A stretch of DNA of 64,000 nt from an uncultured Ignavibacteriales bacterium. GTDB taxonomy: Bacteria > Zixibacteria > MSB-5A5 > GN15 > FEB-12. Each line of letters begins with the position of its first letter. Position 1 is the stretch's first letter. Positions 1-15,907 of this stretch are shown here, in pieces. The notes under the pieces were generated by a model. It was not told where the DNA came from. It saw only the letters and a program-made list of their open reading frames with translations, and searched no databases. A program made the translations under genes and the position numbers. The stretch is taken from the NCBI GenBank assembly GCA_964520865.1, contig CAZFOY010000002.1, positions 2,278 through 66,277 on the forward strand, given 5' to 3'.

Positions 1-985
1 TCGGCTGGGGCAGTTTCTGAATCCCGAATCCGTGTTCCAGAAGCAGACGATAGTAAGACAGCTCTACTTGTGAATAGGCCCGCGTTTCAAAGCAGCTTTC
101 AGAGATATTGGAGCAGGTGGCGGTGGCCGGCTCGAGCTGCCCGAAGTAGATTTCTACTTTGTTGCGCAGGTCGGCCCCTTCCAGCTCGATCAGGAGCTCT
201 TCAATTATCTCCGTAGTAAAACTTTTGTCGATGTTGACGCGAATCACCACCGGAAGTCGAGTAGTTGCGTACTGGATATTCTCGATAATCCTACGGTAAC
301 TGTCCTTTCCGTTTTTGAGCGGTCGCTTCTTATTGTGGATTCGCTCCGGGCCATCGATCGTTACCTGCACCTGTCCGAACTTGAGTTCGGCCAGCTTGTC
401 GGCCGCCTTCTGATCGAGAAGATAGCCGTTCGTGATCACTCCGCTGCATGCGTAGTCAAATTTGTATTCTTCGGCAAGGTCCAGAAATGATTCGGTGAGA
501 TCCGTGATTATGTCCATAGCCAGGAGCGGTTCTCCGCCGTACCAGGTGGTCTGAACATCGTGCAAGGTATCCCCCTGCTTTTCGACGAACGCGATTAAGG
601 CTTCGGCCACCCGCGGCGACATCCGACCCTTCTTGTTTTCTTCGAAACAATAGTTGCAGGCCATGTTACATGCCATGGTCGGGGCGATAATCAGTCCGAG
701 AGAGGTTGGATCGAAGCGCACTTTGCGATAGCGGAATTTCATCCAATCCAATTCGGGAAGGTCACTGTCGACGACGAAATGGCCGTATTGCAGCTGTCCG
801 AGCAATTCCTGCTCGGCGGTGTCGAGATTCTCCGGAGAACCGTTTCCCAGTTTGCCGGCCAGACGCTGATACGTGGCATAATTCTCCGACGTCATCAGGG
901 CGACAGCGCCACTCGCGGCATTGAAGGCCAGATAGTAACCGTCGCGCCAGGGTTGAAAATGATTGAAGCGCGATAACTTTGGCAT
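1..985 (-). CDS. radical SAM enzyme, peptide-maturase-like (N-terminal 328 aa; C-terminus lies beyond the window edge)
   Basis: Absent from the ORF track because it has no stop in the window. My minus-strand translation from ATG at 985 reads MPKLSRFNHFQPWRDGYYLAFNAASGAVALMT... It has a CX3CX2C cluster (MACNMACNYC, Cys106/110/113), a GGEPLL motif (WYGGEPLLAM) and VITNG. About 95 aa precede the cluster, as in RRE-bearing RiPP maturases. AAAGG lies 6 nt upstream of the ATG. Confidence 0.75.
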   Translation of the reverse strand, partial: MPKLSRFNHFQPWRDGYYLAFNAASGAVALMTSENYATYQRLAGKLGNGSPENLDTAEQELLGQLQYGHFVVDSDLPELDWMKFRYRKVRFDPTSLGLIIAPTMACNMACNYCFEENKKGRMSPRVAEALIAFVEKQGDTLHDVQTTWYGGEPLLAMDIITDLTESFLDLAEEYKFDYACSGVITNGYLLDQKAADKLAELKFGQVQVTIDGPERIHNKKRPLKNGKDSYRRIIENIQYATTRLPVVIRVNIDKSFTTEIIEELLIELEGADLRNKVEIYFGQLEPATATCSNISESCFETRAYSQVELSYYRLLLEHGFGIQKLPQP

Positions 986-1018
986 GACTCGCCTTTCGTT
1001 TTGAAAATCCCTGGCAGG

Positions 1019-1037
1019 GAGCAACTCGAAGTTGCTC
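1019..1037 (-). promoter_or_regulatory. intercistronic hairpin (7-bp perfect stem GAGCAAC/GTTGCTC, 5-nt loop) between the small ORF and the radical SAM gene
   Basis: Read directly from the sequence: gagcaac-tcgaa-gttgctc, about 35 nt upstream of the radical SAM ATG. No U-tract follows, so it is not a classical terminator. Confidence 0.4.
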
Positions 1038-1080
1038 GCCTGCCGTTGCTCTTCAGGGATGCGTCTTTGGCGCAACCCAT

Positions 1081-1092
1081 GTCAATATTGAC
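1081..1092. repeat. perfect 12-bp palindrome GTCAATATTGAC in the peptide-maturase spacer
   Basis: The sequence is its own reverse complement. Any function (operator?) is unknown. Confidence 0.5.
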
Positions 1093-1212
1093 TGACATTA
1101 TTCGACGTGCGGGAAGAAGTCGCCCGGGATGCCTCCCTGCGCGCCGTGTGAGGTCACATAAACCGTGTCGTCGAACGCGGAAGCCGTATGGCGGGATCCG
1201 GTCGACGCATCC

Positions 1213-1314
1213 TTATATGATGATTCCGTACAGCGGTTTGATGTGGCAGAAGCTGGAACATTTCGTTGTGCAGAAGCCCAGTTTGGTGTCCAGCGGATCG
1301 ATCAAATAGATCAT
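1213..1314 (-). CDS. small Cys-rich peptide (33 aa), candidate RiPP precursor: MIYLIDPLDTKLGFCTTKCSSFCHIKPLYGIII
   Basis: Too short for the ORF track. ATG at 1314, TAA at 1215-1213. GAGGAGG Shine-Dalgarno (1329-1323) sits 8 nt upstream of the ATG. An in-frame TAA eight codons upstream fixes the start. Core is Cx3Cx3C. Same strand as, and immediately upstream of, the radical SAM gene. Confidence 0.55.
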   Translation of the reverse strand: MIYLIDPLDTKLGFCTTKCSSFCHIKPLYGIII

Positions 1315-1575
1315 GCGGTTCACCTCCTCTAACAGTTAAATATTATGTGTAACTGCGGATGCACCACACCCTGGTACATCTCCTCAACTTACGAATGTTC
1401 GCGGACTTTGAATGTGCCGATACGGCGGACTTATCGAGTGGAACTTACTACATACCCGGCCGAACCCACGGCCGCCGTCGCGACGCGCCTCCCTCAAAAC
1501 GTTGTCTATTGGTTGTCGAGTCGAAATGTTGAACTCGTCTTGAACTACCACTCGAAATTGAAACAACCTGCATGC

Positions 1576-1604
1576 ATAATATTATTCGTAGAGTAACGTG
1601 TCAA
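1576..1604 (-). promoter_or_regulatory. sigma70-type promoter, -35 TTGACA / 17 nt / -10 TATTAT, reading toward the peptide-radical SAM pair
   Basis: Exact -35 consensus (1604-1599) and a near-consensus -10 (1581-1576) at optimal spacing on the minus strand. Confidence 0.5.
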
Positions 1605-1965: not shown

Positions 1966-3258
1966 ATGAAGAAGAAGACAGTCTGGCTTCTAATCCTCCT
2001 CATAGTAATAGTTGTCGGAGGGATATTGGTAAGGAACGCGATGTCGAAGTCAGATACCGTGACCTACGATTTCGCCAAAATAGAGCGCGGCAATGTGCTC
2101 AACACTATTTCGGCCAGTGGTACGCTCAGCCCGGTTACTACGGTCGATATCGGGACCCAGGTCTCGGGGACTATCGACTCCGTATATGTCGATTACAATG
2201 ACAACGTGAAACAGGGGCAGGTCCTGGCCGTTCTGGATACTGTTCTGCTTAAGACTAATGTGATTGACGCCGAAGCGAATCTGGAGCGGGCTAACGCCGC
2301 GCTGAGCCAGGCGGAAGCGGACTTCGACCGGGCCAAAAAGCTCTATGACAAAAAGCTGATTTCCGACGCCGATTACATTACGGCGCAGGTCAATATCAAG
2401 ACTCAGGAAGCGGCAGTGAAGTCGGCCCAGGCGGATGTGACCAGGGCTCACCGAAACCTCCAGTATGCCGTAATCAGATCGCCTATCAAGGGGACTGTGA
2501 TCAGCAAGAACGTTGAATCGGGGCAAACGGTCGCGGCAAGCTTCTCTACGCCGACGCTGTTCAAGATAGCTCAGGACCTTTCCCATATGCAGATTCTGGC
2601 CGACGTGGATGAAGGGGATATTGGTCAAATCAAGGACGGTCAAGAGGTTACGTTCGAAGTTCAGGCGTACCCGGACAAGCAGTTTTCCGGAACGGTGAAT
2701 CAGCTGCGACTTGAACCAACCACGCTACAAAATGTCGTTACCTACACGGTCGTTATCGATGCTGCCAATCCGGACAATCTGTTGCTTCCCGGCATGACGG
2801 CGACAGTGGATTTCATTGTCGATAAGCTGACGGATGTCACTTTAGTTCCGAACAAGGCGTTGCGTTTTCAACCATCCGAAGAGGAGATGGCGGCGTTTCG
2901 TGAGCGACGTCAGAAAGAGTTGGCCGACATGCCGGATTCGGTCAAGGCCAGATTCCGCGGGGGACAGGGAAGGAGTGGCGGCGGAGGCATGGGGGGCGGA
3001 ATGGCCGGAGGCGGTATGATGGCCGGCGGCGGGGGTGGCGCGAACCGATCGCAGAATTTCGGCCACGTTTGGTACCTTGACTCGGACAATCAACTGGCGA
3101 TGGCGCCGCTTCGCCTGGGAGCCACCGATGGCACCAACACGCAAGTCGTTTCGAGCAGGACTTTGAAGGACGGAATGGAAGTAATCGTCGGAACCGGCTC
3201 CAGCGGCCAGTCTTCCGACTCGCAACATCGGCCGATGGGATTTCGGCTTTTCCGATAA
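1966..3258 (+). CDS. HlyD/MacA-family periplasmic adaptor subunit
   Basis: N-terminal TM anchor, barrel-sandwich and long coiled-coil hairpin region (EANLERANAALSQAEADFDRAKKLYDKKLIS...VIRSPIKGTVI). First gene of an adaptor-ATPase-permease operon. Confidence 0.9.
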   Translation: MKKKTVWLLILLIVIVVGGILVRNAMSKSDTVTYDFAKIERGNVLNTISASGTLSPVTTVDIGTQVSGTIDSVYVDYNDNVKQGQVLAVLDTVLLKTNVIDAEANLERANAALSQAEADFDRAKKLYDKKLISDADYITAQVNIKTQEAAVKSAQADVTRAHRNLQYAVIRSPIKGTVISKNVESGQTVAASFSTPTLFKIAQDLSHMQILADVDEGDIGQIKDGQEVTFEVQAYPDKQFSGTVNQLRLEPTTLQNVVTYTVVIDAANPDNLLLPGMTATVDFIVDKLTDVTLVPNKALRFQPSEEEMAAFRERRQKELADMPDSVKARFRGGQGRSGGGGMGGGMAGGGMMAGGGGGANRSQNFGHVWYLDSDNQLAMAPLRLGATDGTNTQVVSSRTLKDGMEVIVGTGSSGQSSDSQHRPMGFRLFR

Positions 3259-3279
3259 AGCGAGAATAACTCAACGGAG

Positions 3280-4053
3280 ATGGACACAACTATGACAACT
3301 GTAATCGAGACCCGCGGCCTGACCAAGACGTTTCAGATGGGATCGGTACCGGTCCACGCCCTCCGCGGTGTTGATTTGAAAATAGAGTCCGGAGAATTCG
3401 TGGCGATCATGGGTGCGTCCGGATCGGGGAAGTCCACCCTCATGAATCTGCTCGGCTGTCTTGACCGACCTTCGTCCGGTGAATACTGGCTCGATGGAAT
3501 GAAAGTCGACAGTTTGAGCAAAAACGAGTTCGCCGCCGTGCGCAACGAGCGGATCGGATTCGTTTTTCAGGGCTTCAATCTTCTGGCCCGCACTTCGGCA
3601 CTTGAAAATGTGGAACTGCCGTTATTCTATGACCGGGGGAGACGCATCGAAAACCCACGGCAGGAGGCTATCGACGTACTCAAACAGGTGGGCCTCGGCG
3701 AACGGATGGACCATGAGCCGAATCAACTCTCCGGCGGGCAGCAGCAACGAGTGGCGATTGCACGAGCACTCGTCAACCGACCCGCGATTGTCCTTGCCGA
3801 CGAACCGACCGGCAACCTGGATAGTCGGACCTCTGCCGAGGTGATGGCGCTGTTTCAGGAACTGAACGATCGGGGCATCACGATAGTCCTGGTGACTCAC
3901 GACGCCGATATAGCGGCGTATGCCAAGCGCATAGTGGAAATCAGGGATGGGCTGGTGATTCGGGATGTCGCCGTGACCGATCGGCGAGACGCCCACAAGG
4001 ATATGGCCGCTCTTCCGTCCAGGGAGACGGAACCGGAGGAGGCCGACGTATGA
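3280..4053 (+). CDS. ABC transporter ATP-binding protein (MacB/LolD family)
   Basis: Walker [10 protein letters not shown], signature [15 protein letters not shown], Walker [14 protein letters not shown]-loop VTHD. Confidence 0.9.
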
Positions 4054-5270
4054 AAGAATTCAAAAACTTGTTGAAGGCGGCATTTAGAAGCCTGCTTAAG
4101 AACCGCATGCGGAGCCTGTTGACGTCGCTCGGTATAATTATCGGTGTCAGTGCAGTGATCGTTATGGTCGCGGTCGGGCAGGGGTCGCAGGCGCAGATTG
4201 AAAAAAGTATTAATGCCCTGGGCACGAACCTCCTGATTGCGTTTCCGAGCAGCGGGTCTTCCCGGGGCGTTCACTTCGGGGCGGGCACCCTCAATCGGTT
4301 CACCTTCAGCGATGTCGACAAGCTGCGTAAAGAAGCTACCTTGCTGCAAGCCGTATCTCCGGTAGTGCGTACCGGAGCCCAGGTGATCGGCGGCGGAACC
4401 AACTGGGCAACGGAGATCTATGGCGTGACGCCGGACTACTTCAGCATCCGCAATTGGGAAATTGACAAAGGTGATTTCTTCTCCGAGCGCGATGTATCCA
4501 CCAACAAGAAAGTGGCCGTACTGGGTGCAACCGTGGCAAACCAGCTCTTCCCGGAACAGGATCCGGTCGGACAGAGTATCCGCATCAGAAATATACCATT
4601 TACCGTGGTCGGGGTGTTGAAGGCAAAAGGGCAGAGCGGGATGGGGCACGACCAGGACGACATCATCCTGGCTCCCGCAACCACGGTGCTGTACCGCCTC
4701 AAGGGTGGACGCTGGATAGATATGATTAACGCCAGCGCCGTATCGACCAATCAGATGGACTCGGCGATGGCCCAGATGACGACGATCCTTCGTGCCGCGC
4801 ACCGTATTCCCGAAGGTGAGGACAACGATTTCACGATCCGAAGTCAGGCTGAAATTACCGAAGCTGTTACCGAGACTACGAGTACAATGACTCTGCTCCT
4901 CGGATCGATCGCGGCAGTAAGCCTGGTGGTTGGCGGTATCGGCATCATGAATATCATGCTCGTGTCAGTGACCGAGCGAACCCGCGAGATCGGTATCAGA
5001 CTCTCGGTTGGAGCAAGAGAGAGCGATATACTCTTCCAATTTCTGACCGAAGCGGTTGTTCTCAGTCTGGCCGGAGGACTGATCGGGATACTTCTGTCTG
5101 CCCTTGTTGTAGCCGGCCTCGGCCGGTTCACGCAGCTACACCCCATAATCTCGCCGCAGATCATCACGATTTCGGTGTTGTTTGCCGGAGCGGTCGGCGT
5201 TTTCTTCGGCTTCTACCCGGCGCGGAAGGCGGCGGCGTTGAATCCGATCGACGCCCTCAGGCATGAATAG
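4050..5270 (+). CDS. ABC transporter permease, MacB periplasmic domain + FtsX fold
   Basis: ATGA start/stop overlap with the ATPase gene. N-terminal TM, large periplasmic domain, C-terminal FtsX-type helices ([14 protein letters not shown]... [16 protein letters not shown]). Confidence 0.9.
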
Positions 5271-5565: not shown

Positions 5566-7923
5566 ATGAATACCGTGAAGTTGATACGGGCAAGATTATT
5601 TGTTCTCTTATTCATACTAACCCTCATTCTGTCCGCGGCACCTGTTGTCCTGGCCACGAAAACGCCGGCCCCGGTTTTTAATCCCGAACTAACGGTAGCC
5701 AAGACCGCAAAAGCGATCAAGGTCGATGGAAATATCAGTCCTGCCGAATGGGCCGGAGCTGCCGAGATCTCCAATTTCGTTGAACGTTATCCCGGAGAAA
5801 ACACTCAGCCCGCGGTCGCTACACAAACTTTCGTTACTTACGACCGGGACAACCTGTATGTGGCATTCGTCTGTCACGATGATCCGGCGAGTATTCGGGC
5901 TACGATGTGCCAGCGGGACCAATTCAACGGCGATGATGATGTCTGTGTACTAATCGATACCTATGGGAAGGCGGCCTGGGCCTACGAGCTTCTCGTGAAT
6001 CCGTACGGAGTTCAGAAGGACCGACTCTGGACGCAAGTTGCAGGAGAAGACAGTGGTTTCGACATGGTCTGGGCATCGGCGGCCAAAGTAACTGATTCAG
6101 GATATCAAGTCGAGATTGCGGTCCCCTTCTCGAGCATGAGGTTCCCCAATCAATCACCACAATCGTGGAAGATGGATTTCTGGAGAAACCGGCCCCGACA
6201 AAGCTCGCACCAGTACAGTTGGGCGGCGTACAACCGTAACGAACAATGCTGGCCGTGCCAGTGGGGAGAGGTCAACGGGATTGGCGACGTCAACCCGGGG
6301 AAAGGGATGGAGATTCTGCCCACCTATGTTGCCCATCAGGCAGGTTATCTCAACGACGGCGGTGATCCCACTTCCGGTTTCCACGAAGGAGACGTGAGCG
6401 GCGAGCTGTCGCTGGGCGCAAAGTACTCGATCTCCTCGAATGCCACGCTCGAAGGTGCGTACAATCCGGACTTCAGCCAGATCGAAAGCGACGCGGCGCA
6501 GGTCGACGTGAACTCGACAATCGCCCTTTTCTACCCGGAGCGAAGGCCGTTCTTTCAGGAAGGATCCGATATTTTCCGTACGCTGTTCAACTCCTTCTAT
6601 ACCCGAACGGTCAACGATCCGCAGTACGCCACGAAATTCATTACCAGGACTTCCGACTACAGCATTGGCTTCATGTCCGCCGAAGACAAGAATACACCGT
6701 ATTTACTTCCGCTCGAAGAACGCTCAGTGCTGTTCAACAGCGGCAAGAGCTATGTCAACGTCCTTCGGGGGAGTCGAGCGATCGGCGCAGAATCTCGAAT
6801 GGGATTCATCCTTACGGATCGAAGGCTCGACGGGGGAGGGTACGGAACAATTGCTTCAGTTGACGGTCGTTTTCGCCTGACCCAGCAATACAGTGTCCTG
6901 GGCCAGTTCATATCGAGTTTTACCGGCGAACCGGACAAGGCAGGACCGAGCGCGGGGCTCGAAGGCGTCAAAATCGATCGGGGAAAGCGAACGGCAATAT
7001 TCGACGGCGAGTCGTTTCACGGCAACGCGCTGATCACGCAATTGCGCCGACAGGCCCGCGAATGGAGCTTCACGATTGATTACGATCAGGTTGAGCCGTC
7101 CTATCGCACGCTTACCGGTTATGACCCGTGGGTAGATTATCGCAACACGTTTGTCGGTACCCAGTATACCTTCTATCCGACCAAAGGGTTGTTCCAGCGA
7201 ATCCAACCGTCGATCAATGTCGATGGAAGATGGTTGTTCGACGGGACCCGGCGGTGGGAACACCAGTATCTAAACTTGTACACGCAGTTAAGATGGGCGC
7301 AGACCGAAGCAAGCATTTCCGTGTCGAGAGGATCCGAATCCTGGACAAGCGGCTACTCAGGGAATCTGATCGAGTACAACGGACTCGTTTCCGTCGGGTT
7401 CAATGCCGATGGTCAGTTCTCCAATGCGCTCGGATATCAGTTCAATCTGCAGAGATCCAAGGATGTCGCCCGATTTGCCGAAGCGGAGGGACTTCAAAAC
7501 TCGGTGGAAGTATCTCTGGGGATCAAGCCAGTCGACCGTCTGTTGATCGAACCGGACGTCAATTATGTCCGAAGCACGCACGCCGACAAGGGAAACGAGC
7601 TTTATCGCCAGTTCATTTTCCATACGCGGTTGAGTATGCAGCTCAATCGGCAGTTGTCGTTGAGGCTGGTGCTGCAGTACAATGATTCCCGCGCTGCCAT
7701 TTACACGGGCGAAGATACTCAGGGACCGACATATTATCACGCTTTGAACAAGTCGTGGGCGGTCGATCCGTTGTTGACGTATCGAATCAGTTCATTCAGC
7801 GTGTTGTACGCCGGAGCGACTCACCAGTATGACTTCTTTCCGATGAATGATCAGTTCAATTCGCAATGGAGGCTGGGTTCGCGTCAGTTCTTCCTGAAAC
7901 TACAGTATTTGTTCCAAGCATAG
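5566..7923 (+). CDS. secreted/outer-membrane protein with CBM9-like N-terminal domain and DUF5916-like beta-rich body
   Basis: AGGAG lies 8 nt upstream. Signal peptide present. N-terminal KVDGNISPAEWAGAAEISNFVERYPGE...LYVAFVCHDD resembles CBM family 9. The long aromatic-rich C-terminal region ends in F-Q-A, as outer-membrane beta-barrels often do. Confidence 0.65.
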   Translation: MNTVKLIRARLFVLLFILTLILSAAPVVLATKTPAPVFNPELTVAKTAKAIKVDGNISPAEWAGAAEISNFVERYPGENTQPAVATQTFVTYDRDNLYVAFVCHDDPASIRATMCQRDQFNGDDDVCVLIDTYGKAAWAYELLVNPYGVQKDRLWTQVAGEDSGFDMVWASAAKVTDSGYQVEIAVPFSSMRFPNQSPQSWKMDFWRNRPRQSSHQYSWAAYNRNEQCWPCQWGEVNGIGDVNPGKGMEILPTYVAHQAGYLNDGGDPTSGFHEGDVSGELSLGAKYSISSNATLEGAYNPDFSQIESDAAQVDVNSTIALFYPERRPFFQEGSDIFRTLFNSFYTRTVNDPQYATKFITRTSDYSIGFMSAEDKNTPYLLPLEERSVLFNSGKSYVNVLRGSRAIGAESRMGFILTDRRLDGGGYGTIASVDGRFRLTQQYSVLGQFISSFTGEPDKAGPSAGLEGVKIDRGKRTAIFDGESFHGNALITQLRRQAREWSFTIDYDQVEPSYRTLTGYDPWVDYRNTFVGTQYTFYPTKGLFQRIQPSINVDGRWLFDGTRRWEHQYLNLYTQLRWAQTEASISVSRGSESWTSGYSGNLIEYNGLVSVGFNADGQFSNALGYQFNLQRSKDVARFAEAEGLQNSVEVSLGIKPVDRLLIEPDVNYVRSTHADKGNELYRQFIFHTRLSMQLNRQLSLRLVLQYNDSRAAIYTGEDTQGPTYYHALNKSWAVDPLLTYRISSFSVLYAGATHQYDFFPMNDQFNSQWRLGSRQFFLKLQYLFQA

Positions 7924-8025: not shown

Positions 8026-11000
8026 TTACTTATTCTTTGCTGTCACGGGCAGGTGAAACAGCATCTGAGGACTTATCTCCCGTTTCTCGAGATTCTTTCC
8101 CGAGACAAACACCGCCAGAGCTTCGTCCCCTTTCTTCTGGAACATCCTGATAGTAATCGGGTGATAACCGGCTTTCAAGGCGATGGATCCGGGCACTTCC
8201 CCTTCGCCATGGAGTCCGTCGTTGTCAACTATGAGTGAGTCGGCGACCCACAACCGGCTGCCGTCATCCGAGGACAGGTCAAAGTCATACAATCCATCGG
8301 AAGACACCTTGATATAGCCGGTGAATAGCAGGCCGAAGTCTTCGGGTCGGGCAAAATCCGGAATAACGATTGAATCCATGACTGTCTGTTTGACCGGGGC
8401 AAGCGAATCAAAGTCCGGCAAGTTGTCCCAGGATCCTTCATAGTAAGTGCACGCAAGCCCGTTTACAGGATTAGCCGGCGGCTGGACCGCTTCTATCAGC
8501 GTAGCCTTCGTAAACTTCGAGGATATCGAATAAGGGCTGACGCCGTTATCCTTGAAAGCACTCGCTTTTAAGGTAGTTGTCTTGGTCAGCTTGATCGGTT
8601 CCTTGTAAACGGCCGAAGTTATAGTCGGCTCGGAACCGTCGAGCGTGTACCTGATCGTGGCGCCGGGAGTCGGCGACGTGAGACTAACATCGAGATTATC
8701 GAGAAAATCGTGGCGTTTCGCGACAAGGTTCACGATCGCGTTGTCGATTTCATCGTACAACGGATGGGCCGGGACTATTTTATCGTAGGGCGTATTCACC
8801 GCCGTCGCGGCCATGATTCTAATCCGCTTGTCGTTCGGCAACGTAACGTGCTTCGCTCCTTCGGGGAGATCAAGCTCTACGAGGAACAGGTAGGTATATT
8901 CGTAAGCGTCGTTCTCGCCCTTCGGCGTATGCCGATGCGTTCCGACCCACGCAACCGGTTCTCGGTTGATGTAGGCCGGGGCAATCTGACCCCTTTCTTC
9001 GACAAAATTACCCCCGACAAGCCGATTGTTCCACTGGCCGAGCTTCTCATGATAATCCTGCACCCAGACGTTCGTCTCCTTGCCGTCGACGGAGAATTTG
9101 CCTTCAGCAGGTCCGTCGACTGCGGCAGCGAGGATGTAGCAGCGATTGAATGTACCGGCCGGGATATTCAAGTCCTGTCCTTCGCATACCACAACATTGT
9201 TCTCACCGTCTTTCTTTGGTCCGAACTTGAACGCGACATTCTTGTAAACGAGCAACTCCGGCAGCAGGTCTCCGGCTATCGTGTAGGCGTGACCATCGAA
9301 ATCACCATCGGTCCGATTCTCGTTGGTGCTGATGCCGTCGTGGTTGAACGGCATTTCGAGAACGGCACTTAGCGGTGTCTCGACCGGCCGCTCCTTGGCA
9401 GGCGAGAGTGTAACGGCAATTGTCCTCGGCTGGTACTTCTTGAAAGACAAATCCAGCGACCCGTTGTCCACGGTCAATGGACCGATTTCCTCTTCGGACC
9501 CGTTAAGCTCCCTGGCCGACGCAATCGGACGGTCAAAACTCATCTTTAGGCCATCGACCGGAGATCCGGTCAATTCGCGCATCCTGACTACGATCTGACT
9601 TGTATCTTCAGCTTTCTTCACCGCTGTTATCATGACCGGGGCCGGTTGATTCGGGGCATCGGACTTGACCAGAGACAACATTGATAAAGTCTTTCCCATT
9701 GTTCCCTTGTGTTCAGGGACCTGAAAAGCATAGAGCGGCTGATTAAGCCTCGCACCTTCCCACGCGATGTCGCCCTTCCGCCAGTCACCTGCATGTCCGA
9801 CGATCGCAAAGGTGAACCGATGATGCCCTTCGTCCATGGATCTCTGATCGCCGACCCACGACCAGTTTTCATACACACCCGGAGTGTGAATCAGGGTCAG
9901 CCGAAGTGTTCCTGAATCCGGATGGTCCCATCCGTACTTGCAGTCGTTGAGAACAGCGACTCCATAAGATCCATCGGGCGAAGTCATATCGGCCCACTGA
10001 TGGGCCGGGACCTCGTACAGCTTCGGCTGATCGATACCGCGCTGGATCGTGCCGAGCCCAAGATCGTAGGTGACCTTTTCGTTCGCGCATGTCAGCGGGA
10101 AAGCTGCCTTGAGAAGCGTTTCGCGTTCGTACCAATCGACCGTATTGTTCACTTCGACCCGACTTCCGCTCGCGCCGGCGCCGAGGCTGACGACCTGGTG
10201 GAAATCACTGTTAGGGGTATGCCGGGTGATTTCAAGACTCACCCGTACCGGTCCGTTTTCAATTACTCTTATTTCAGCCGGTTTGTCTGAGACCGTTTTG
10301 GGAGTGTCGATAATGTCTTCATACTGAATTTCCCAGGCAGGCCACTGTTTCGGTTTGTCGTGAAGCATCTGCAGCGAAGCAGGGGCAGACAGCAGTTCCC
10401 GATTCAGAGCTTTGTCGAACACGGAAGTAATATCGCCGTACTGATTCAACTTGACGGTGTACTGTTGGTTGTCCAGTTGGCTTGAGGTCGCGGACAGCCC
10501 TGTCTGAATTGCGCAAGGCTTGTCTGACGGCCGAACGTCGTAGACCGCATAACCGACCGAGGGGGCGTGGGCAAGGAAGATCACGTGCGCCTTGCCGCTA
10601 TTGATGCTAAGAACCTGAGATGGGACCTCTTTGTTGTCCGGGCCGTAAACTCTGAATGAGGCAGGGGTCTTTCCCTCGAAATTGATATCGACGTCAGCGA
10701 TATCCTGCCGGTCAATGGCAAGCGGATTGTAGATAAGCACCGGAGTTCCTTTGGCTCGGGTATCGAGAACCGGTGAGGTTGCCTCCACCGCGTTTTGAAG
10801 GACACCGGCGAATCTATTAAGGCAGAGGATCTCATCGTTCCATGAGAATTCATAAGCTTCAGGAATGCTGGTCCCGGTGACATCGTCGTGAAATTGGTGC
10901 CAGATGAACCGAATCCAGGTATCGCGAAGGAATTCCCGTGGGTAGCGATACCCGCCCATCGATTCGGCGATAACGGAAGCACGTTCGGCGGCATCGCCGA

Positions 11001-11988
11001 GCTGTTCGTTCTTCCGGTTCCATCGCTTCATGGCAGCCTCGGAGCTGTAACACCCGACGCCGTGATGGGTCATCAGGAGTTCCCCGTTGTATACCGGAAG
11101 ATGAATGTTTTTCTGGGCCGTTACCGAGTCATAGAGCTGATCTGAAGTGATGTTCTCGACTTTGAGCGGTCCATCGCTCTTCTCCGATTTGGTCAGCCAG
11201 TCGACCGACAGAGAGTCGGGCGCCCCGCCTGTATCTCCGGTCCCGAAATACATAACGCCGGCGTACAGACCCGAGGAATCCCCCTGATTGTTCACTTTCC
11301 TCAGCCAGGTGGTGTCACGGCTCATGTCGTGCTTGAGTTGTGTTCCGTAAGAACCCGGATTCACTGCCGACACCAGCCGGGAACCGTCGACACCCTCCCA
11401 GAGGCCGATGTCGAACGGTACGCCGACAGCCGATCCCCAGGTAAGCTTCTGTGTGGAGAAGCTCTTGAGACCGCAGTGTGCCGCAATTGAGGGGAGAGCA
11501 TAGCCGAATCCAAAGCAGTCGGGGAGAAAGACGTCGTTGCTGGTTTTGCCGAATTCACGTTTGAAATAGCCGTTGCCGTACAGCGTCTGGCGTACCAGCG
11601 ACTCGAAGGATGGAATGTTTACATCCATCGCATCAACCCAGCTTCCTGTGACATGCCAGCGTCCTTCGGCGATGTATTTCTTCAGTTGTGCGAACTCCTC
11701 GGGATAATATTCCTGAAGAAGCATATAATGGAAAGCGCCTTCCCAGCCAAAGGTGTAGCTGGGATATTCCCGCATGAGTTTGAAATTGTCGTGGAAGGTT
11801 GCGGGGACGAATTCGTTGATCGTATTTTGTATCGTCCAGCGCCACTGCGTGTCGAGGTGCGAGGTGCCGACCGCCCACAGGCGTTTGGCCGGCATGCCGG
11901 AGGTATCCGGTGATGGTTGAGTCTTTCCTGTCATGAAGAATCCTACCGTAAAGATGCAGACTGCTATAATACTGTTTCGCATACACAC
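8026..11988 (-). CDS. secreted GH38 alpha-mannosidase with C-terminal chitobiase/hexosaminidase-C-like and PA14 domains
   Basis: GH38 N-domain GTSHLDTQWRWT, central WHQFHDDVTGTS. Near the C-terminus, ATIRYTLDGSEPT (CHB_HEX_C-like) followed by PA14-like YYEGSW...GYIKVSSDGLYDFDLSSDDGSRLWV. N-terminal signal/TM present. Confidence 0.9.
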   Translation of the reverse strand: MCMRNSIIAVCIFTVGFFMTGKTQPSPDTSGMPAKRLWAVGTSHLDTQWRWTIQNTINEFVPATFHDNFKLMREYPSYTFGWEGAFHYMLLQEYYPEEFAQLKKYIAEGRWHVTGSWVDAMDVNIPSFESLVRQTLYGNGYFKREFGKTSNDVFLPDCFGFGYALPSIAAHCGLKSFSTQKLTWGSAVGVPFDIGLWEGVDGSRLVSAVNPGSYGTQLKHDMSRDTTWLRKVNNQGDSSGLYAGVMYFGTGDTGGAPDSLSVDWLTKSEKSDGPLKVENITSDQLYDSVTAQKNIHLPVYNGELLMTHHGVGCYSSEAAMKRWNRKNEQLGDAAERASVIAESMGGYRYPREFLRDTWIRFIWHQFHDDVTGTSIPEAYEFSWNDEILCLNRFAGVLQNAVEATSPVLDTRAKGTPVLIYNPLAIDRQDIADVDINFEGKTPASFRVYGPDNKEVPSQVLSINSGKAHVIFLAHAPSVGYAVYDVRPSDKPCAIQTGLSATSSQLDNQQYTVKLNQYGDITSVFDKALNRELLSAPASLQMLHDKPKQWPAWEIQYEDIIDTPKTVSDKPAEIRVIENGPVRVSLEITRHTPNSDFHQVVSLGAGASGSRVEVNNTVDWYERETLLKAAFPLTCANEKVTYDLGLGTIQRGIDQPKLYEVPAHQWADMTSPDGSYGVAVLNDCKYGWDHPDSGTLRLTLIHTPGVYENWSWVGDQRSMDEGHHRFTFAIVGHAGDWRKGDIAWEGARLNQPLYAFQVPEHKGTMGKTLSMLSLVKSDAPNQPAPVMITAVKKAEDTSQIVVRMRELTGSPVDGLKMSFDRPIASARELNGSEEEIGPLTVDNGSLDLSFKKYQPRTIAVTLSPAKERPVETPLSAVLEMPFNHDGISTNENRTDGDFDGHAYTIAGDLLPELLVYKNVAFKFGPKKDGENNVVVCEGQDLNIPAGTFNRCYILAAAVDGPAEGKFSVDGKETNVWVQDYHEKLGQWNNRLVGGNFVEERGQIAPAYINREPVAWVGTHRHTPKGENDAYEYTYLFLVELDLPEGAKHVTLPNDKRIRIMAATAVNTPYDKIVPAHPLYDEIDNAIVNLVAKRHDFLDNLDVSLTSPTPGATIRYTLDGSEPTITSAVYKEPIKLTKTTTLKASAFKDNGVSPYSISSKFTKATLIEAVQPPANPVNGLACTYYEGSWDNLPDFDSLAPVKQTVMDSIVIPDFARPEDFGLLFTGYIKVSSDGLYDFDLSSDDGSRLWVADSLIVDNDGLHGEGEVPGSIALKAGYHPITIRMFQKKGDEALAVFVSGKNLEKREISPQMLFHLPVTAKNK

Positions 11989-12043: not shown

Positions 12044-13423
12044 CTATCCGGAGAATCTGAATCCTCGTTGTTTCAATCTATCGAGCAAGACCGCGGCGAG
12101 GATCACTCCGCCGAGGACGACTTTTTGGGTGTAACTTTCCACATTCGTGAGATTCATGCCGTTCTGGATGACGGCGATAATGAACGCTCCGATCAATGTT
12201 CCGGAGATTCGTCCTTCGCCACCCATCAGGCTGGTGCCCCCTACAACCACGGCTGCAATAACATATAACTCATACGTCAGGCCGTAGGTCGGAGCGCCAC
12301 TTTTTAACTGCGAGGCCATGATGACTCCGCCGAGGCCGGCCAGGAGTCCGCAGATGACATAAGCCCAGAACAGAATTAACTTCACGCGAATCCCGGACAG
12401 ACGGGCAGCTTCAGGATTGCCGCCTACGGCGTAAATGTATCGTCCAATCGTGGTTCGAGTCATTACGATGTGGGCGAGAACGTACAAGACGATCATCAGG
12501 ATGACGGCGTAAGGGATATTGAACAGCGGATCGGCGCCGCGACCGAGCAAAATAAATCCGTCGGGGAGCTGATATATCGGCTTTCCCTGCGATATGATAT
12601 AGGCAAACCCGGCCGCCACCTGCATCATCGACAGCGTGGCGATAAACGGAGGAATGCCGAATCCGGTGATCATCACGCCGCTGAACGCGCCGGTCGCCGC
12701 GCATACGAGGATGCCGCCGAGTCCGGCGATGAGGACAGCCGTGGTCGAGGCCGAAGCTCCGCCCATATGACCTACGATCCACGCAGTCACAACTGCCGAA
12801 AGTGCGATCAGACTGCCGACCGACAAGTCGATTCCGGCGGTGATAATGACAATGGTCATACCGATCGCGATAATTGCTATGACCGTTATTTGATTGGCTA
12901 CATTGCGCAGATTGTCGGCAAGCAGAAAGGTCGGCCAGCGGTAAGTCGGGGGCGTCACGATCTCACTCGATTGATAGTCCTTCAACTGTGACACGATCGC
13001 GCCGATCACGGCCGAAAATGATTGAGTGGTGGCGATGATCTGAGGAACTTCCTTCCGCAACGCGACCTGACTGAGGGAATCGCGAAGAACACTCGGCTCG
13101 CTGGAGAAGATAATGCGCGATGGAATCGAGGATTCCTTGAGCTTTCTCTCTAAAGTGTTCGCGAAGAGGGAGTCTTCGCCGTTTACTCGCGCGACTATAA
13201 GCACGCCGCTGTTCAGAGATTGGTTCTGCTTCAGAGAGGTCATTAGCTTTTCTGCGGCGCTTGACCCTGTTGGCGACTGCTCTCTCAATGTGAGCACGGA
13301 AAAGAGGAGACACAGGATAAGCAGAACTCCCAGCATGCCATAGTCACCGAGAATCTTCGACCATCGGCCCCGACTCGCTTTAGGGCGTTCCGTCCGTACC
13401 GATTTCTTCGTCTCTTCAGTCAC
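12044..13423 (-). CDS. sugar ABC transporter permease (RbsC/AraH family) with about 150-aa N-terminal extension
   Basis: The C-terminal 310 aa are a typical ribose-type permease core (GIDLSVGS..., GGTSLMGGEG). GTGA overlap with the upstream ATPase stop. Confidence 0.85.
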   Translation of the reverse strand: MTEETKKSVRTERPKASRGRWSKILGDYGMLGVLLILCLLFSVLTLREQSPTGSSAAEKLMTSLKQNQSLNSGVLIVARVNGEDSLFANTLERKLKESSIPSRIIFSSEPSVLRDSLSQVALRKEVPQIIATTQSFSAVIGAIVSQLKDYQSSEIVTPPTYRWPTFLLADNLRNVANQITVIAIIAIGMTIVIITAGIDLSVGSLIALSAVVTAWIVGHMGGASASTTAVLIAGLGGILVCAATGAFSGVMITGFGIPPFIATLSMMQVAAGFAYIISQGKPIYQLPDGFILLGRGADPLFNIPYAVILMIVLYVLAHIVMTRTTIGRYIYAVGGNPEAARLSGIRVKLILFWAYVICGLLAGLGGVIMASQLKSGAPTYGLTYELYVIAAVVVGGTSLMGGEGRISGTLIGAFIIAVIQNGMNLTNVESYTQKVVLGGVILAAVLLDRLKQRGFRFSG

Positions 13424-14940
13424 GATACCGCCAAAGCCATGACATCTTCGTGCCTGGCTGTTTTAGGGTTGGTGATCTCGCCTGAAATTTCACCTTCGCG
13501 CATCACCAGTATCCGGTCGCTGATCCCGAGAACCTCCGGAAGCTCCGAAGAAATGACGATGATCACTTTCCCCTGTGCCGCGAGTTCGTTGATAAGCAGA
13601 TAGGTTTCATACTTGGCGCCGACATCGATCCCACGCGTCGGTTCATCGAATATGATAACTTTCGAATCGGTCTCAAGCCAGCGGGCGACGAGGAGCTTCT
13701 GCTGGTTACCACCCGACAGATGCTCGGCCGGCTGCTCCGGTCCGGTGACTCGGATGTTAAGGGCGGACACTCGTCCCGCGAAGCGAGAGCGTTCTTGCTT
13801 CTTATTGATCCATCCGAATCGGGACCAGCTGCGGAGATTGGGGAGAGCGAAATTCTCCTCGACCGATGCCCCCAATATCAGCCCCTGTCGTTTCCGATCC
13901 TCCGTCAGCAGACATATTCCGGATCGGATAGCATCACGGGGAGAGGAGATATGAAGACGGCGACCATCGAGCTCGACTTCTCCGCTGATCGCCGGATCGG
14001 CGCCGAATATAAGGCGGGCGAGCTCGGTGCGTCCGGCCCCCATGAGACCGGCCAGTCCGAGTACTTCGCCTCGTTTCACCGCGAACGAAATCGGCCCGAG
14101 GCCTGGACCCGCGAGATTTCGGACTACAAAACAAATATCTTTCGGAGCAGGTCTGTGTCTGGGAAATTCGTCTTCAAGCGACCGTCCGACCATCTGTTCG
14201 ATCAGCTGTCGTCGCGTGTAATTCTGAGAGGTGCGGGTGTCGATTGTCAATCCGTCGCGCATGACTGTGATGCGGTCGGCAATCTCAAAAATCTCGTCGA
14301 GGCGGTGGCTGATGAAGATGACTCCGATTCCTCGACCGGTGATCTCCTTCAGAATATCGAATAGAGCTTCGACTTCGCGGGGAGCCAGCGCCGCCGTCGG
14401 TTCATCCATCACCAGAACACGACACTCCGAGAGCAGGGCTCGCGCGATCTCGACCAGCTGTTGTTGCGCAACCGTCAATTCAGAAACGAGGGTATCTGAG
14501 TCAAGGCTGAGGCCCAGGCGCTCGAGGACCGGCTCGCATTGAGTACGCTCGAAATTGTTGTCGATTATCCCGTGATGAGTCCGTTCACGTCCAAGAAAGA
14601 GGTTGGCGCGAACAGTCATGGCAGGCACTAGTGTAAACTCCTGGTGGATCGCCGCGATCCCGGCATGTCGCGCCTCAACAGGTGAATGGAATTCAATCGG
14701 CTGACCATCGATCTCAATCGTCCCGCTGTCCGGCCGGTGCACTCCGGTGAGTATTTTGATCAGCGTGCTCTTACCTGCACCGTTCTCGCCGACAAGTGCG
14801 TGGATCTCCCCGGGCCGTAGATCGAAATTCCCATTCCCGACCGCCTGCACGCCCGGAAACGACTTCCTGAGTGCGGTCATACGCACGAGCGGACGGCCGG
14901 TGACTTCCGATCGGCCCTTGTCTGAACGGGGTTCGGTCAT
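13420..14940 (-). CDS. sugar ABC transporter ATP-binding protein, duplicated ABC domains (RbsA/MglA family)
   Basis: Two nucleotide-binding domains: GENGAGKST / LTVAQQQLVEIARAL and LSGGNQQKLLVARWL / IIFDEPTRGID. Confidence 0.9.
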   Translation of the reverse strand: MTEPRSDKGRSEVTGRPLVRMTALRKSFPGVQAVGNGNFDLRPGEIHALVGENGAGKSTLIKILTGVHRPDSGTIEIDGQPIEFHSPVEARHAGIAAIHQEFTLVPAMTVRANLFLGRERTHHGIIDNNFERTQCEPVLERLGLSLDSDTLVSELTVAQQQLVEIARALLSECRVLVMDEPTAALAPREVEALFDILKEITGRGIGVIFISHRLDEIFEIADRITVMRDGLTIDTRTSQNYTRRQLIEQMVGRSLEDEFPRHRPAPKDICFVVRNLAGPGLGPISFAVKRGEVLGLAGLMGAGRTELARLIFGADPAISGEVELDGRRLHISSPRDAIRSGICLLTEDRKRQGLILGASVEENFALPNLRSWSRFGWINKKQERSRFAGRVSALNIRVTGPEQPAEHLSGGNQQKLLVARWLETDSKVIIFDEPTRGIDVGAKYETYLLINELAAQGKVIIVISSELPEVLGISDRILVMREGEISGEITNPKTARHEDVMALAVS

Positions 14941-14950
14941 TCTCTAAGAA

Positions 14951-15907
14951 TCAATTGGCATCCTGCTGAGTGTAGAGGGCGCAGGGAATCAAGATAGTCG
15001 GAGGAACTTCTTCGCCGGAAACGTATGCTTTGACAGCTCCGATTGTTCTCTCGCCGATCACGTGTGGCTGCTGGATAACATCGGCGTATATCTTACCTGC
15101 TTTAATTGCCGCCCGCGCTTCGGGCACGGCATCGAACCCGACGATAGTTATCTGCCCGCTCTTGCCGGCTTTCTCGACCGCCGCGAGGGCGCCGAGGGCG
15201 GAGTCGTCGTTAATGCCGAATATCGCGGTCAAATCCGGATGGGCCTGGATAATGTCCTCGGCCGTTCGGAACGCCTGATCTTTGACCCCGTGGCCGGACA
15301 GTTTGGCGACAATCTTTAAACCGGGATACTTGGCCAGTTCGTCTTCGAATCCCTTCACCCGCTGAATAACCGACTCAACTTCCGGATGGTCGATTATCGC
15401 AACCTTACCGGTGCCATTCAACGCCTTGGCGATCGCCTGCGCGGCGAGTGCGCCGCCGGCGATGTTGTCCGAAGCCACGTGAGACACGACTTTGACTCCT
15501 TCAGCCAGGCAGGCGATATCGGCGGTAAAGACCGGAATACCGGCGTCGTTGGCCGCCTTGATCGCCGTGCCGATCGATTTGGAGTCGCAGGGAGAGACGA
15601 TGATGGCGTCTACCTTTCGGACGATGAAATCCTGAATCTGATCCTTCTGCTTTGCGACGTCAAACTCGCCCGCCGTAACGAGCAGTTGATAACCGGCCGA
15701 ATCGGCCGCGTCTTTCAGCCCTGCCTCGAGTTCCTGATAGAAGGGGTGAGTTCGCGTGAGCAACGACACACCGATAGTCAATTTAGGCTGTTTGGTGGTC
15801 ACTTTTGCGGAAGCGTTGTCGGTTTCGCTCTTGTGGCATCCTGCCAGGAGCATTGCCGCCAAAACGATACTGCTGATTGAACCTGCGATGATGAATTTTC
15901 TGAACAT
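14951..15907 (-). CDS. sugar ABC transporter substrate-binding lipoprotein (RbsB-like periplasmic binding protein)
   Basis: Lipobox LLAGC. Type I periplasmic binding fold sequence (IGVSLLTRTHPFYQEL...VDAIIVSP...IPVFTADI). Confidence 0.85.
   Translation of the reverse strand: MFRKFIIAGSISSIVLAAMLLAGCHKSETDNASAKVTTKQPKLTIGVSLLTRTHPFYQELEAGLKDAADSAGYQLLVTAGEFDVAKQKDQIQDFIVRKVDAIIVSPCDSKSIGTAIKAANDAGIPVFTADIACLAEGVKVVSHVASDNIAGGALAAQAIAKALNGTGKVAIIDHPEVESVIQRVKGFEDELAKYPGLKIVAKLSGHGVKDQAFRTAEDIIQAHPDLTAIFGINDDSALGALAAVEKAGKSGQITIVGFDAVPEARAAIKAGKIYADVIQQPHVIGERTIGAVKAYVSGEEVPPTILIPCALYTQQDAN

Follow-up and report, generated by a model that had tools for sequence, protein, structure and literature searches.

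Sactipeptides and ranthipeptides carry thioether links formed by a cysteine sulfur, to an alpha carbon in the former and to a non-alpha carbon in the latter. In the CteB/SCIFF system (thermocellin; PDB 5WGG/5WHY), the gene for a Cys-rich precursor lies immediately upstream of that for the enzyme. The target of a second enzyme, PapB (freyrasin), carries a repeated Cys-X3-Asp motif. According to the abstract of PMC9413430, the thioethers made by PapB join Cys to Asp or Glu. Here we describe a locus at the left edge of a 64,000-nucleotide stretch of DNA (the window), where genes for a 33-residue peptide and for a radical S-adenosylmethionine (SAM) enzyme lie on the minus strand. By the members of the enzyme's protein cluster, the source organism is a candidate-division Zixibacteria bacterium.

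We consider it probable that this locus is the start of an operon for a peptide synthesized by ribosomes and modified after translation (RiPP): a 33-residue precursor and a maturase in which a RiPP recognition element (RRE) and a radical SAM core are joined to a SPASM domain, with cysteine thioethers in an exported product. The gene pair, the domain architecture of the enzyme, the conservation of the peptide family, and the order of the operon are matters of direct observation. An earlier, sequence-only reading of the window had proposed a precursor-maturase pair at this position, and all of the computational checks that it had put forward favor that proposal.

The precursor peptide gene

The sequence-only reading had drawn attention to a small open reading frame (ORF; Table 1) with a Shine-Dalgarno sequence, an in-frame stop eight codons 5' of its ATG, and a Cx3Cx3C core, formed by C15, C19, and C23. 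All of these are present. It had also called the ORF unannotated. This holds for the supplied ORF track, from which the peptide is missing, but not for NCBI, JGI, and Logan data, where it is called 'hypothetical protein'. No second copy of the peptide gene was found in the 64-kb window.

The comparison set comprised 12 syntenic loci from Zixibacteria, GN15, and Ignavibacteriales-labeled metagenome-assembled genomes (MAGs), one of which (L013) ends inside the enzyme gene. Alignments covered the 20 peptides of the loci, 69 enzyme homologs, and (for noncoding sequence) five loci. Small ORFs, in one to four copies, lie upstream of the enzyme gene on the same strand in all 12 loci. Codon differences are mostly synonymous: 12 synonymous against three non-synonymous with L011, and 12 against three to four with the two closest loci, with third positions favored. 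Nucleotide identity of the peptide ORF is 83% with L011, 82% with L002, 71% with L010, and 73% with L003. Corresponding values are 70, 55, 31, and 29% for the 5' leader, and 69, 52, 31, and 34% for the intercistronic spacer. The ORF is an island of conservation, at 71 to 83% identity versus 29 to 70% in its noncoding flanks, and the GGAGGT of its Shine-Dalgarno sequence is invariant in the five aligned loci. Because it is kept in 12 of 12 loci, shows a synonymous bias, and exceeds its flanks in identity, the ORF is more than a chance occurrence. Judged from these alignments, it is a real coding gene under purifying selection.

The 20 locus peptides share the form M-x-[YF]-L-[IV]-D-P, a Cys-rich middle, and P-[LMC]-Y-G-[IVL], with M1, L4, D6, P7, P27, Y29, and G30 invariant and K26 nearly so. 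Among these peptides C15 hardly varies, and the same holds for C19 and C23 in the wider family. That family was recovered in two ways. A profile search of a 5.8-billion-protein collection returned 255 clusters, the best 120 of which (expectation value, E, below 1.5e-6) are all unnamed or 'hypothetical protein', none with a Pfam domain. HMMER, run exhaustively over 1.84 billion cluster representatives, returned 212 of them at E ≤ 1e-3. The peptide family has hundreds of members and is without a name in any curated database. Conservation of the small ORF, on which the earlier proposal of a pair had been made to depend, is thus borne out in the syntenic loci, in the signature of purifying selection, and in the size of the family.

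The family pattern is M-I-Y-L-I-D-P, a linker of six to eight residues, a CxxxC ladder, and I-K-P-L-Y-G. Statistics were taken from 116 peptides (the Cys spacing set) and from a second set of 221 peptides. Members are 29 to 46 residues long, with the first Cys typically at position 15 and typically two to five Cys before PLYG; the number of Cys ranges from one to six across the family. Among the 116 peptides, Cys-Cys spacing is exactly 4 in 211 of 261 intervals, and in 96 the P of PLYG follows the last Cys at a distance of four residues. Lys occupies Cys+3 in 41% of cases, with Leu, Phe, Val, or Tyr making up most of the remainder. Asp (3%) and Glu (2%) are rare in the cores, and the mean net charge is +1.7.

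(The HMMER search with the peptide also found P0332, a 280-residue protein outside the window, which contains four tandem repeats. Three of these include I-K-P-L-Y-G-V-P-V-D, the same block as the peptide C-terminal motif, and one includes I-K-L-L-Y-G; each repeat is followed by a Pro/Thr-rich linker.)

The adjacent maturase

The gene for the first radical SAM enzyme (rSAM1) starts at position 985, 227 to 228 nt past the peptide stop and on the same strand, and its CxxxCxxC motif occupies residues 106 to 113. Both agree with the sequence-only reading, which had placed the gene 228 nt downstream and the cluster at about residue 106. The full-length enzyme (P0001, 454 residues) was retrieved from public data and is identical to the 328-residue window fragment; L001, a public contig of 3.7 kb that is identical to the sequence at the window edge, extends beyond the window. 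P0001 has 1066 relatives at E ≤ 1e-10, whose taxon-specific names are mostly Zixibacteria or GN15, with one Deferrimicrobium.

The radical SAM core matches Pfam PF04055 (57.9 bits). Recovery of the C terminus also bore out the SPASM domain that the sequence-only reading had proposed to look for: residues 333 to 411, encoded outside the window, match TIGR04085 with 52.9 bits (cut-off, 27). Pfam PF13186 gave no match to P0001 at E ≤ 0.001. The elements C333-x13-G347-x4-C352, C391-x2-C394-x5-C400-x3-C404, and C419 are invariant in the 69 homologs, and this pattern is the seven-Cys SPASM motif. C291 and C298 are also invariant.

The six best NCBIfam matches of P0001 are peptide maturases, as are most of the others. 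Scores in bits, with family cut-offs in parentheses, are 329.6 for Clo7bot (TIGR04334; 600), 294.7 for TIGR04463 (525), 207.7 for CefB (600), 207.6 for FlmE/OhkG (500), 169.3 for the geopeptide maturase (400), 133.3 for PapB (340), and 84.4 for the SCIFF maturase (TIGR03974; 425). Three homologs of P0001 reach 330 to 361 bits with the Clo7bot maturase model (600).

An AlphaFold2 model of P0001 (predicted local distance difference test, pLDDT, 87.5; predicted template modeling score, pTM, 0.85) places four short strands and then helices at residues 1 to 90, ahead of the barrel. Among PDB structures it matches CteB best (5WHY/5WGG; E about 2e-20), with 461 to 476 columns aligned, the full length including the CteB RRE. 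Next come SuiB, the anaerobic sulfatase-maturating enzyme (anSME; about 385 columns, no RRE), TigE, and ChlB. When the N-terminal domain was modeled alone (pLDDT 82.7), its seven best Foldseek matches were all RRE-bearing RiPP proteins (best E 6e-3, template modeling score 0.63); matches include TigE, TbiB1 bound to leader peptides, a lasso-peptide B1 protein, LynD, and CteB. An RRE ahead of the cluster, also anticipated by the sequence-only reading, therefore finds moderate support in the predicted fold.

A quite different account would make the small ORF a chance occurrence in a long 5' leader, and the enzyme an anSME-like protein acting on a non-peptide or protein substrate. The ORF is short, at 33 codons, and the supplied track does not list it; anSME structures do appear among the structural matches. 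Yet the changes in this conserved ORF are mostly synonymous, its Shine-Dalgarno sequence is invariant, and at least 212 family representatives were found at E ≤ 1e-3 in 1.84 billion proteins; moreover, the anaerobic sulfatase maturase model (TIGR03942) gives P0001 95.2 bits versus a cut-off of 349, and no sulfatase gene lies nearby. Conservation across loci, codon bias, family size, and the island of identity effectively refute a chance ORF, and we assign this account almost no probability. Identity of P0001 as an anaerobic sulfatase maturase was likewise rejected on that score, on the presence of the RRE, and on the neighborhoods, which hold no sulfatase gene. Clustering with such enzymes or with another non-RiPP family, which the sequence-only reading had named among the outcomes that would refute its proposal, did not materialize, the top matches being peptide maturases.

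The operon beyond the window

Most of the operon lies outside the window. Its conserved order is one or more peptide genes, rSAM1, a second radical SAM-SPASM gene (rSAM2), zero to two genes for B12-binding radical SAM enzymes (B12-rSAM), and a gene for an ATP-binding cassette (ABC) exporter of 569 to 586 residues. In L001, rSAM2 (372 residues) overlaps the rSAM1 stop codon by 4 nt, and the start of a B12-rSAM gene lies 3' of it. B12-rSAM is present in L002, L003, L004, L006, L009, L010, L011, and L012, absent in L005, L007, L008, and L015, and present in two copies in L016. The exporter gene is conserved in every sufficiently long locus.

The second enzyme lacks an extension at its N terminus. 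Its nearest families are the GDL-motif (TIGR03913) and nif11-class-3 maturases, the heme synthase AhbD/NirJ2 families, and MftC, and it reaches none of their cut-offs; SkfB is its best PDB sequence match. The resemblance of rSAM2 to MftC (151 bits) and to PqqE (88 bits, and also among the PDB sequence matches), along with a very short precursor bearing an invariant Tyr-Gly, could be taken to indicate a redox cofactor, made in the manner of PqqA/PqqE or MftA/MftC, with Lys, Tyr, and Gly excised for intracellular use. We find this highly unlikely. Both of these scores fall far short of the family cut-offs; the peptide core is hypervariable, with up to four paralogous precursors per locus; an exporter accompanies every sufficiently long locus; and the locus neighborhoods hold no conserved cofactor-dependent dehydrogenase or peptidase beside the cluster.

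Individual loci show further variation. The B12-rSAM gene of L011 (10508-11948) is split over two frames (ORFs 10508-11233 and 10842-11948); the matching segments in L004 lie in one frame and encode a single 469-residue protein (10508-11914). The split gene reflects either a frameshift or pseudogene, or an assembly error. Just 3' of the L011 exporter gene, an ORF at 13629-14135 has an internal duplication (...CCRVEPSSDPPNHARLKACLLCRSA... / ...CCKVEPSSDPPNYVRLKACLPCRSA...), and may be repeated DNA rather than a gene. In L016, a distant locus, the precursor gene is directly preceded by an extracytoplasmic function (ECF) sigma fragment and by a gene for a zf-HC2 anti-sigma factor (8551-9310), and there are two B12-rSAM genes where others have one (12509-15488). 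These differences suggest that regulation and tailoring vary among family members.

Noncoding features of the locus

The near-consensus promoter that the sequence-only reading had seen reading into the gene pair is well matched (Table 1). Its −35 element, as CTTGAC, is invariant in five aligned loci, and its −10 element is less conserved. Positions 900 to 2000 contain five promoter-like sites, versus 0.9 expected from shuffles. The site is a putative promoter.

The 5' leader contains indels between close loci, and so is not coding; its predicted folding does not exceed that of shuffled sequences (z −0.27). An Rfam search of positions 900 to 2000 (E ≤ 1) gave no match, so this leader of about 260 nt is not a known riboswitch. 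Over the whole 64-kb window, no Rfam family reached its gathering score and no tRNA genes were found.

For the spacer from the peptide gene to the enzyme gene, none of 200 shuffled sequences folds as well (z −3.2). Its GC-rich stem-loop shows compensatory changes in five of 14 pairs among the five loci, and 14 of 15 loci have a hairpin of unrelated sequence at this position. RiPP operons elsewhere provide precedent for a hairpin between precursor and enzyme genes. By analogy, this hairpin may attenuate read-through or stabilize the precursor transcript.

A model for maturation and export

These features suggest a model for the locus. The promoter near position 1604 would transcribe the precursor gene and then, past the stem-loop, the maturase genes, with the stem-loop keeping precursor mRNA in excess over enzyme mRNA. 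The RRE of the first maturase may bind the hydrophobic N-terminal M-I-Y-L-I-D-P as an added β-strand; the candidate leader stretch for enzyme residues 1 to 95 is MIYLIDPLDTKLG, including L4, D6, and P7. Binding would place the CxxxC ladder in the active site, and the SPASM domain is expected to hold two auxiliary iron-sulfur clusters. The enzyme would then join the sulfur of each Cys to a carbon atom in a residue nearby, in sactionine- or ranthionine-type thioethers, as CteB does. Presumably rSAM2 and, in most loci, the products of one or two B12-rSAM genes tailor the peptide further, with the invariant I-K-P-L-Y-G as their possible target. Finally, the dedicated ABC exporter would secrete the cationic, cross-linked product.

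Cysteine thioether cross-linking is the likely chemistry, an argument made from homology to CteB and PapB-type enzymes. Several points weigh against it, or against the wider reading of the locus as an operon for an exported thioether RiPP. First, the case for thioethers comes from relatives only, and P0001 scores about half of the family cut-offs throughout. Literature searches, which covered open-access papers, found no demonstrated chemistry for Clo7bot, TIGR04463, or CefB. Second, the fold matches of the N-terminal domain are individually weak, the best having E 6e-3 and none reaching 1e-3, and a sequence-level RRE or PqqD match is absent (Pfam, residues 1 to 95; the N-domain alignment, used as a profile against the PDB, retrieved only noise). 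Because the fold E-values are weak and sequence methods are blind to the domain, the RRE is rated no higher than moderate. Third, a few family members have no more than one or two Cys, and conservation within the core is highest in K-P-L-Y-G, which is Cys-free, so the key modification might bypass Cys. Fourth, the conserved cluster, in the locus neighborhoods, contains no leader peptidase. Fifth, no U-tract follows the hairpin, and an intrinsic terminator scan found none; the conserved hairpin is thus not a canonical terminator.

The third point leads to an alternative in which the genes do encode a precursor and its maturase, and the defining modification is something other than a thioether: a C-C, C-O, or C-N cross-link, an epimerization, or a methylation on I-K-P-L-Y-G. 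Examples would be a Tyr-based cyclophane on Y-G-[I/V] or a Lys-Tyr link, with the Cys residues serving as disulfides or metal ligands. The invariance of P27, Y29, and G30, and the near-invariance of K26, alongside a Cys number that varies from one to six, would be expected on such an account. The operon includes two further radical SAM enzymes of unassigned role, and RRE-bearing radical SAM-SPASM enzymes make many non-thioether links, SuiB and TigE (both structural matches of P0001) among them. However, near-invariance extends to C15 among the locus peptides and to C19 and C23 in the wider family, and the strict CxxxC periodicity is hard to explain without an enzyme acting on Cys. In addition, the best sequence matches are mostly maturases of Cys-rich peptides (Clo7bot, TIGR04463, CefB, PapB), and the best structural match, CteB, forms thioethers. 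A modification without thioethers is therefore unlikely in our estimation, and we prefer a thioether-forming maturase.

A bolder extension of the thioether reading is offered tentatively, as possible but doubtful. The locus could represent a new RiPP class with three radical SAM enzymes, in which an undescribed cross-link (for example, from Cys to the Lys or hydrophobic residue at Cys+3) is combined with a second modification on Lys-Pro-Leu-Tyr-Gly, and in which the leader is about 7 to 13 residues long and has no dedicated protease. Should the main reading of the locus hold, it would provide a defined, testable, and compact RiPP family from an uncultivated phylum, composed of a 33-residue precursor, two or three radical SAM enzymes, and one exporter, with more than 200 diverse natural core sequences available for comparison. 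Since no published chemistry was found for Clo7bot, TIGR04463, and CefB, the solution of a single member would probably give several orphan radical SAM families a function together. With its very short conserved leader and regular CxxxC ladder, the system would also be attractive for peptide stapling.

Neighboring genes

A MacAB-type tripartite efflux set (1966-5270) is divergent to the RiPP operon. Membership of these genes in the cluster was considered and rejected: they are syntenic in L002 and L011 only, and not in nine more distant loci. Because synteny is limited to the two closest loci, the genes are not counted in the cluster and probably lie outside it. Next to them in the window (5566-7923, plus strand), and beside the efflux genes in L002 and L011 too, is a gene for a 785-residue protein with a CBM9-like carbohydrate-binding domain and DUF5916.

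Table 1. Features at the left edge of the window, in window coordinates
Feature	Position	Strand	Remarks
5' part of the RRE/radical SAM/SPASM maturase gene, codons 1-328 of 454	1..985	-	Truncated at the edge of the window
Radical SAM cluster motif C106-x3-C110-x2-C113 (CNMACNYC, residues 106-113)	647..670	-	Invariant in 69 homologs
N-terminal RRE-like domain, residues 1 to about 92	710..985	-	Predicted strands, then helices; Foldseek RRE matches
GC-rich stem-loop GGCAGGCGAGCAAC-TTCG-AGTTGCTCCCTGCC	1013..1044	-	Between the peptide and rSAM1 genes, about 25 nt before the enzyme start
Precursor peptide gene, 33 residues: MIYLIDPLDTKLGFCTTKCSSFCHIKPLYGIII	1213..1314	-	Conserved in all syntenic loci; synonymous-biased codon changes
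5' leader, about 260 nt between putative promoter and peptide start	1315..1575	-	Indels between close loci
Shine-Dalgarno sequence GAGGAGG	1323..1329	-	8 nt 5' of the ATG; read from the sequence
Sigma-70-like putative promoter TTGACA-17-TATTAT	1576..1604	-	11 of 12 positions match; reads into the peptide gene
MacAB-type set: HlyD-family adaptor	1966..3258	+	Divergent to the RiPP operon
MacAB-type set: ABC ATPase	3280..4053	+	Divergent to the RiPP operon
MacAB-type set: MacB/FtsX permease	4050..5270	+	Divergent to the RiPP operon

Comparison with known systems

As far as model scores indicate, the nearest named family for both enzyme and peptide is Clo7bot (TIGR04333/TIGR04334). It is the best curated family for the enzyme, which matches over its full length, and for the peptide, which matches over residues 1 to 24 (E 2e-4). 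Here as there, short Cys-rich precursors adjoin a radical SAM/SPASM enzyme; the tandem precursor copies in several loci of the Zixibacteria-type family are entered as a further likeness. However, both scores lie below cut-offs (329.6 versus 600 bits for the maturase; a weak 21 versus 31 bits for the window peptide), and the Clo7bot peptide model matches only two of the 20 locus peptides at E ≤ 1. Unlike Clo7bot, the Zixibacteria-type family has an invariant I-K-P-L-Y-G C-terminal block, a second radical SAM-SPASM gene, and B12-rSAM genes, and it occurs in Zixibacteria and related MAGs.

CteB/SCIFF is the best full-length structural match and has the same architecture of RRE, radical SAM core, and SPASM domain. 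The differences are substantial: aligned identity with CteB is only 18%, the score with the SCIFF maturase model is about one-fifth of its cut-off (84.4 versus 425 bits), the precursor motif is different, and the present operon has extra radical SAM enzymes.

For PapB/freyrasin, the likeness lies in a target with regularly spaced Cys, comparable to the period-4 ladder of the present peptides, and in a related radical SAM-SPASM core (133.3 bits). However, the PapB model covers residues 96 to 406 only, below its cut-off of 340. The present cores also differ from PapB targets in their scarcity of Asp (3%) and Glu (2%), with Cys+3 mostly Lys or hydrophobic.

TIGR04463 and CefB, both defined as maturases of Cys-rich peptides, match P0001 at full length, including the N-terminal domain (294.7 and 207.7 bits), but below their cut-offs of 525 and 600. 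CefB stands for Cys-every-fifth, and the Cys period here is four, not five.

The open-access literature contained no paper on the family, on its motifs (IYLIDP, IKPLYG, KPLYGI), or on Clo7bot/TIGR04334, TIGR04463, or OhkG; matches to FlmE, CefB, and YLVDP concerned unrelated subjects only. Nor did it yield a paper joining Zixibacteria with ranthipeptides, or, among the ten top-ranked papers of a broader search, any that mentions Zixibacteria; no report of a RiPP from this phylum was thus found in the papers searched.

The sequence-only reading had found no family that it could name. With respect to thresholds this stands, P0001 having failed all of the named-family cut-offs tested in NCBIfam; it does not stand with respect to relatives, for Clo7bot (TIGR04334, TIGR04333) and TIGR04463 can now be given as the nearest named families. 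The generic class of RRE-dependent radical SAM/SPASM maturases with an adjacent precursor accommodates the locus in full: CxxxCxxC motif, SPASM domain, RRE, and co-conserved precursor are all found. We read the system as a variant of the sactipeptide/ranthipeptide-type systems, with its own two-block precursor signature and extra radical SAM enzymes.

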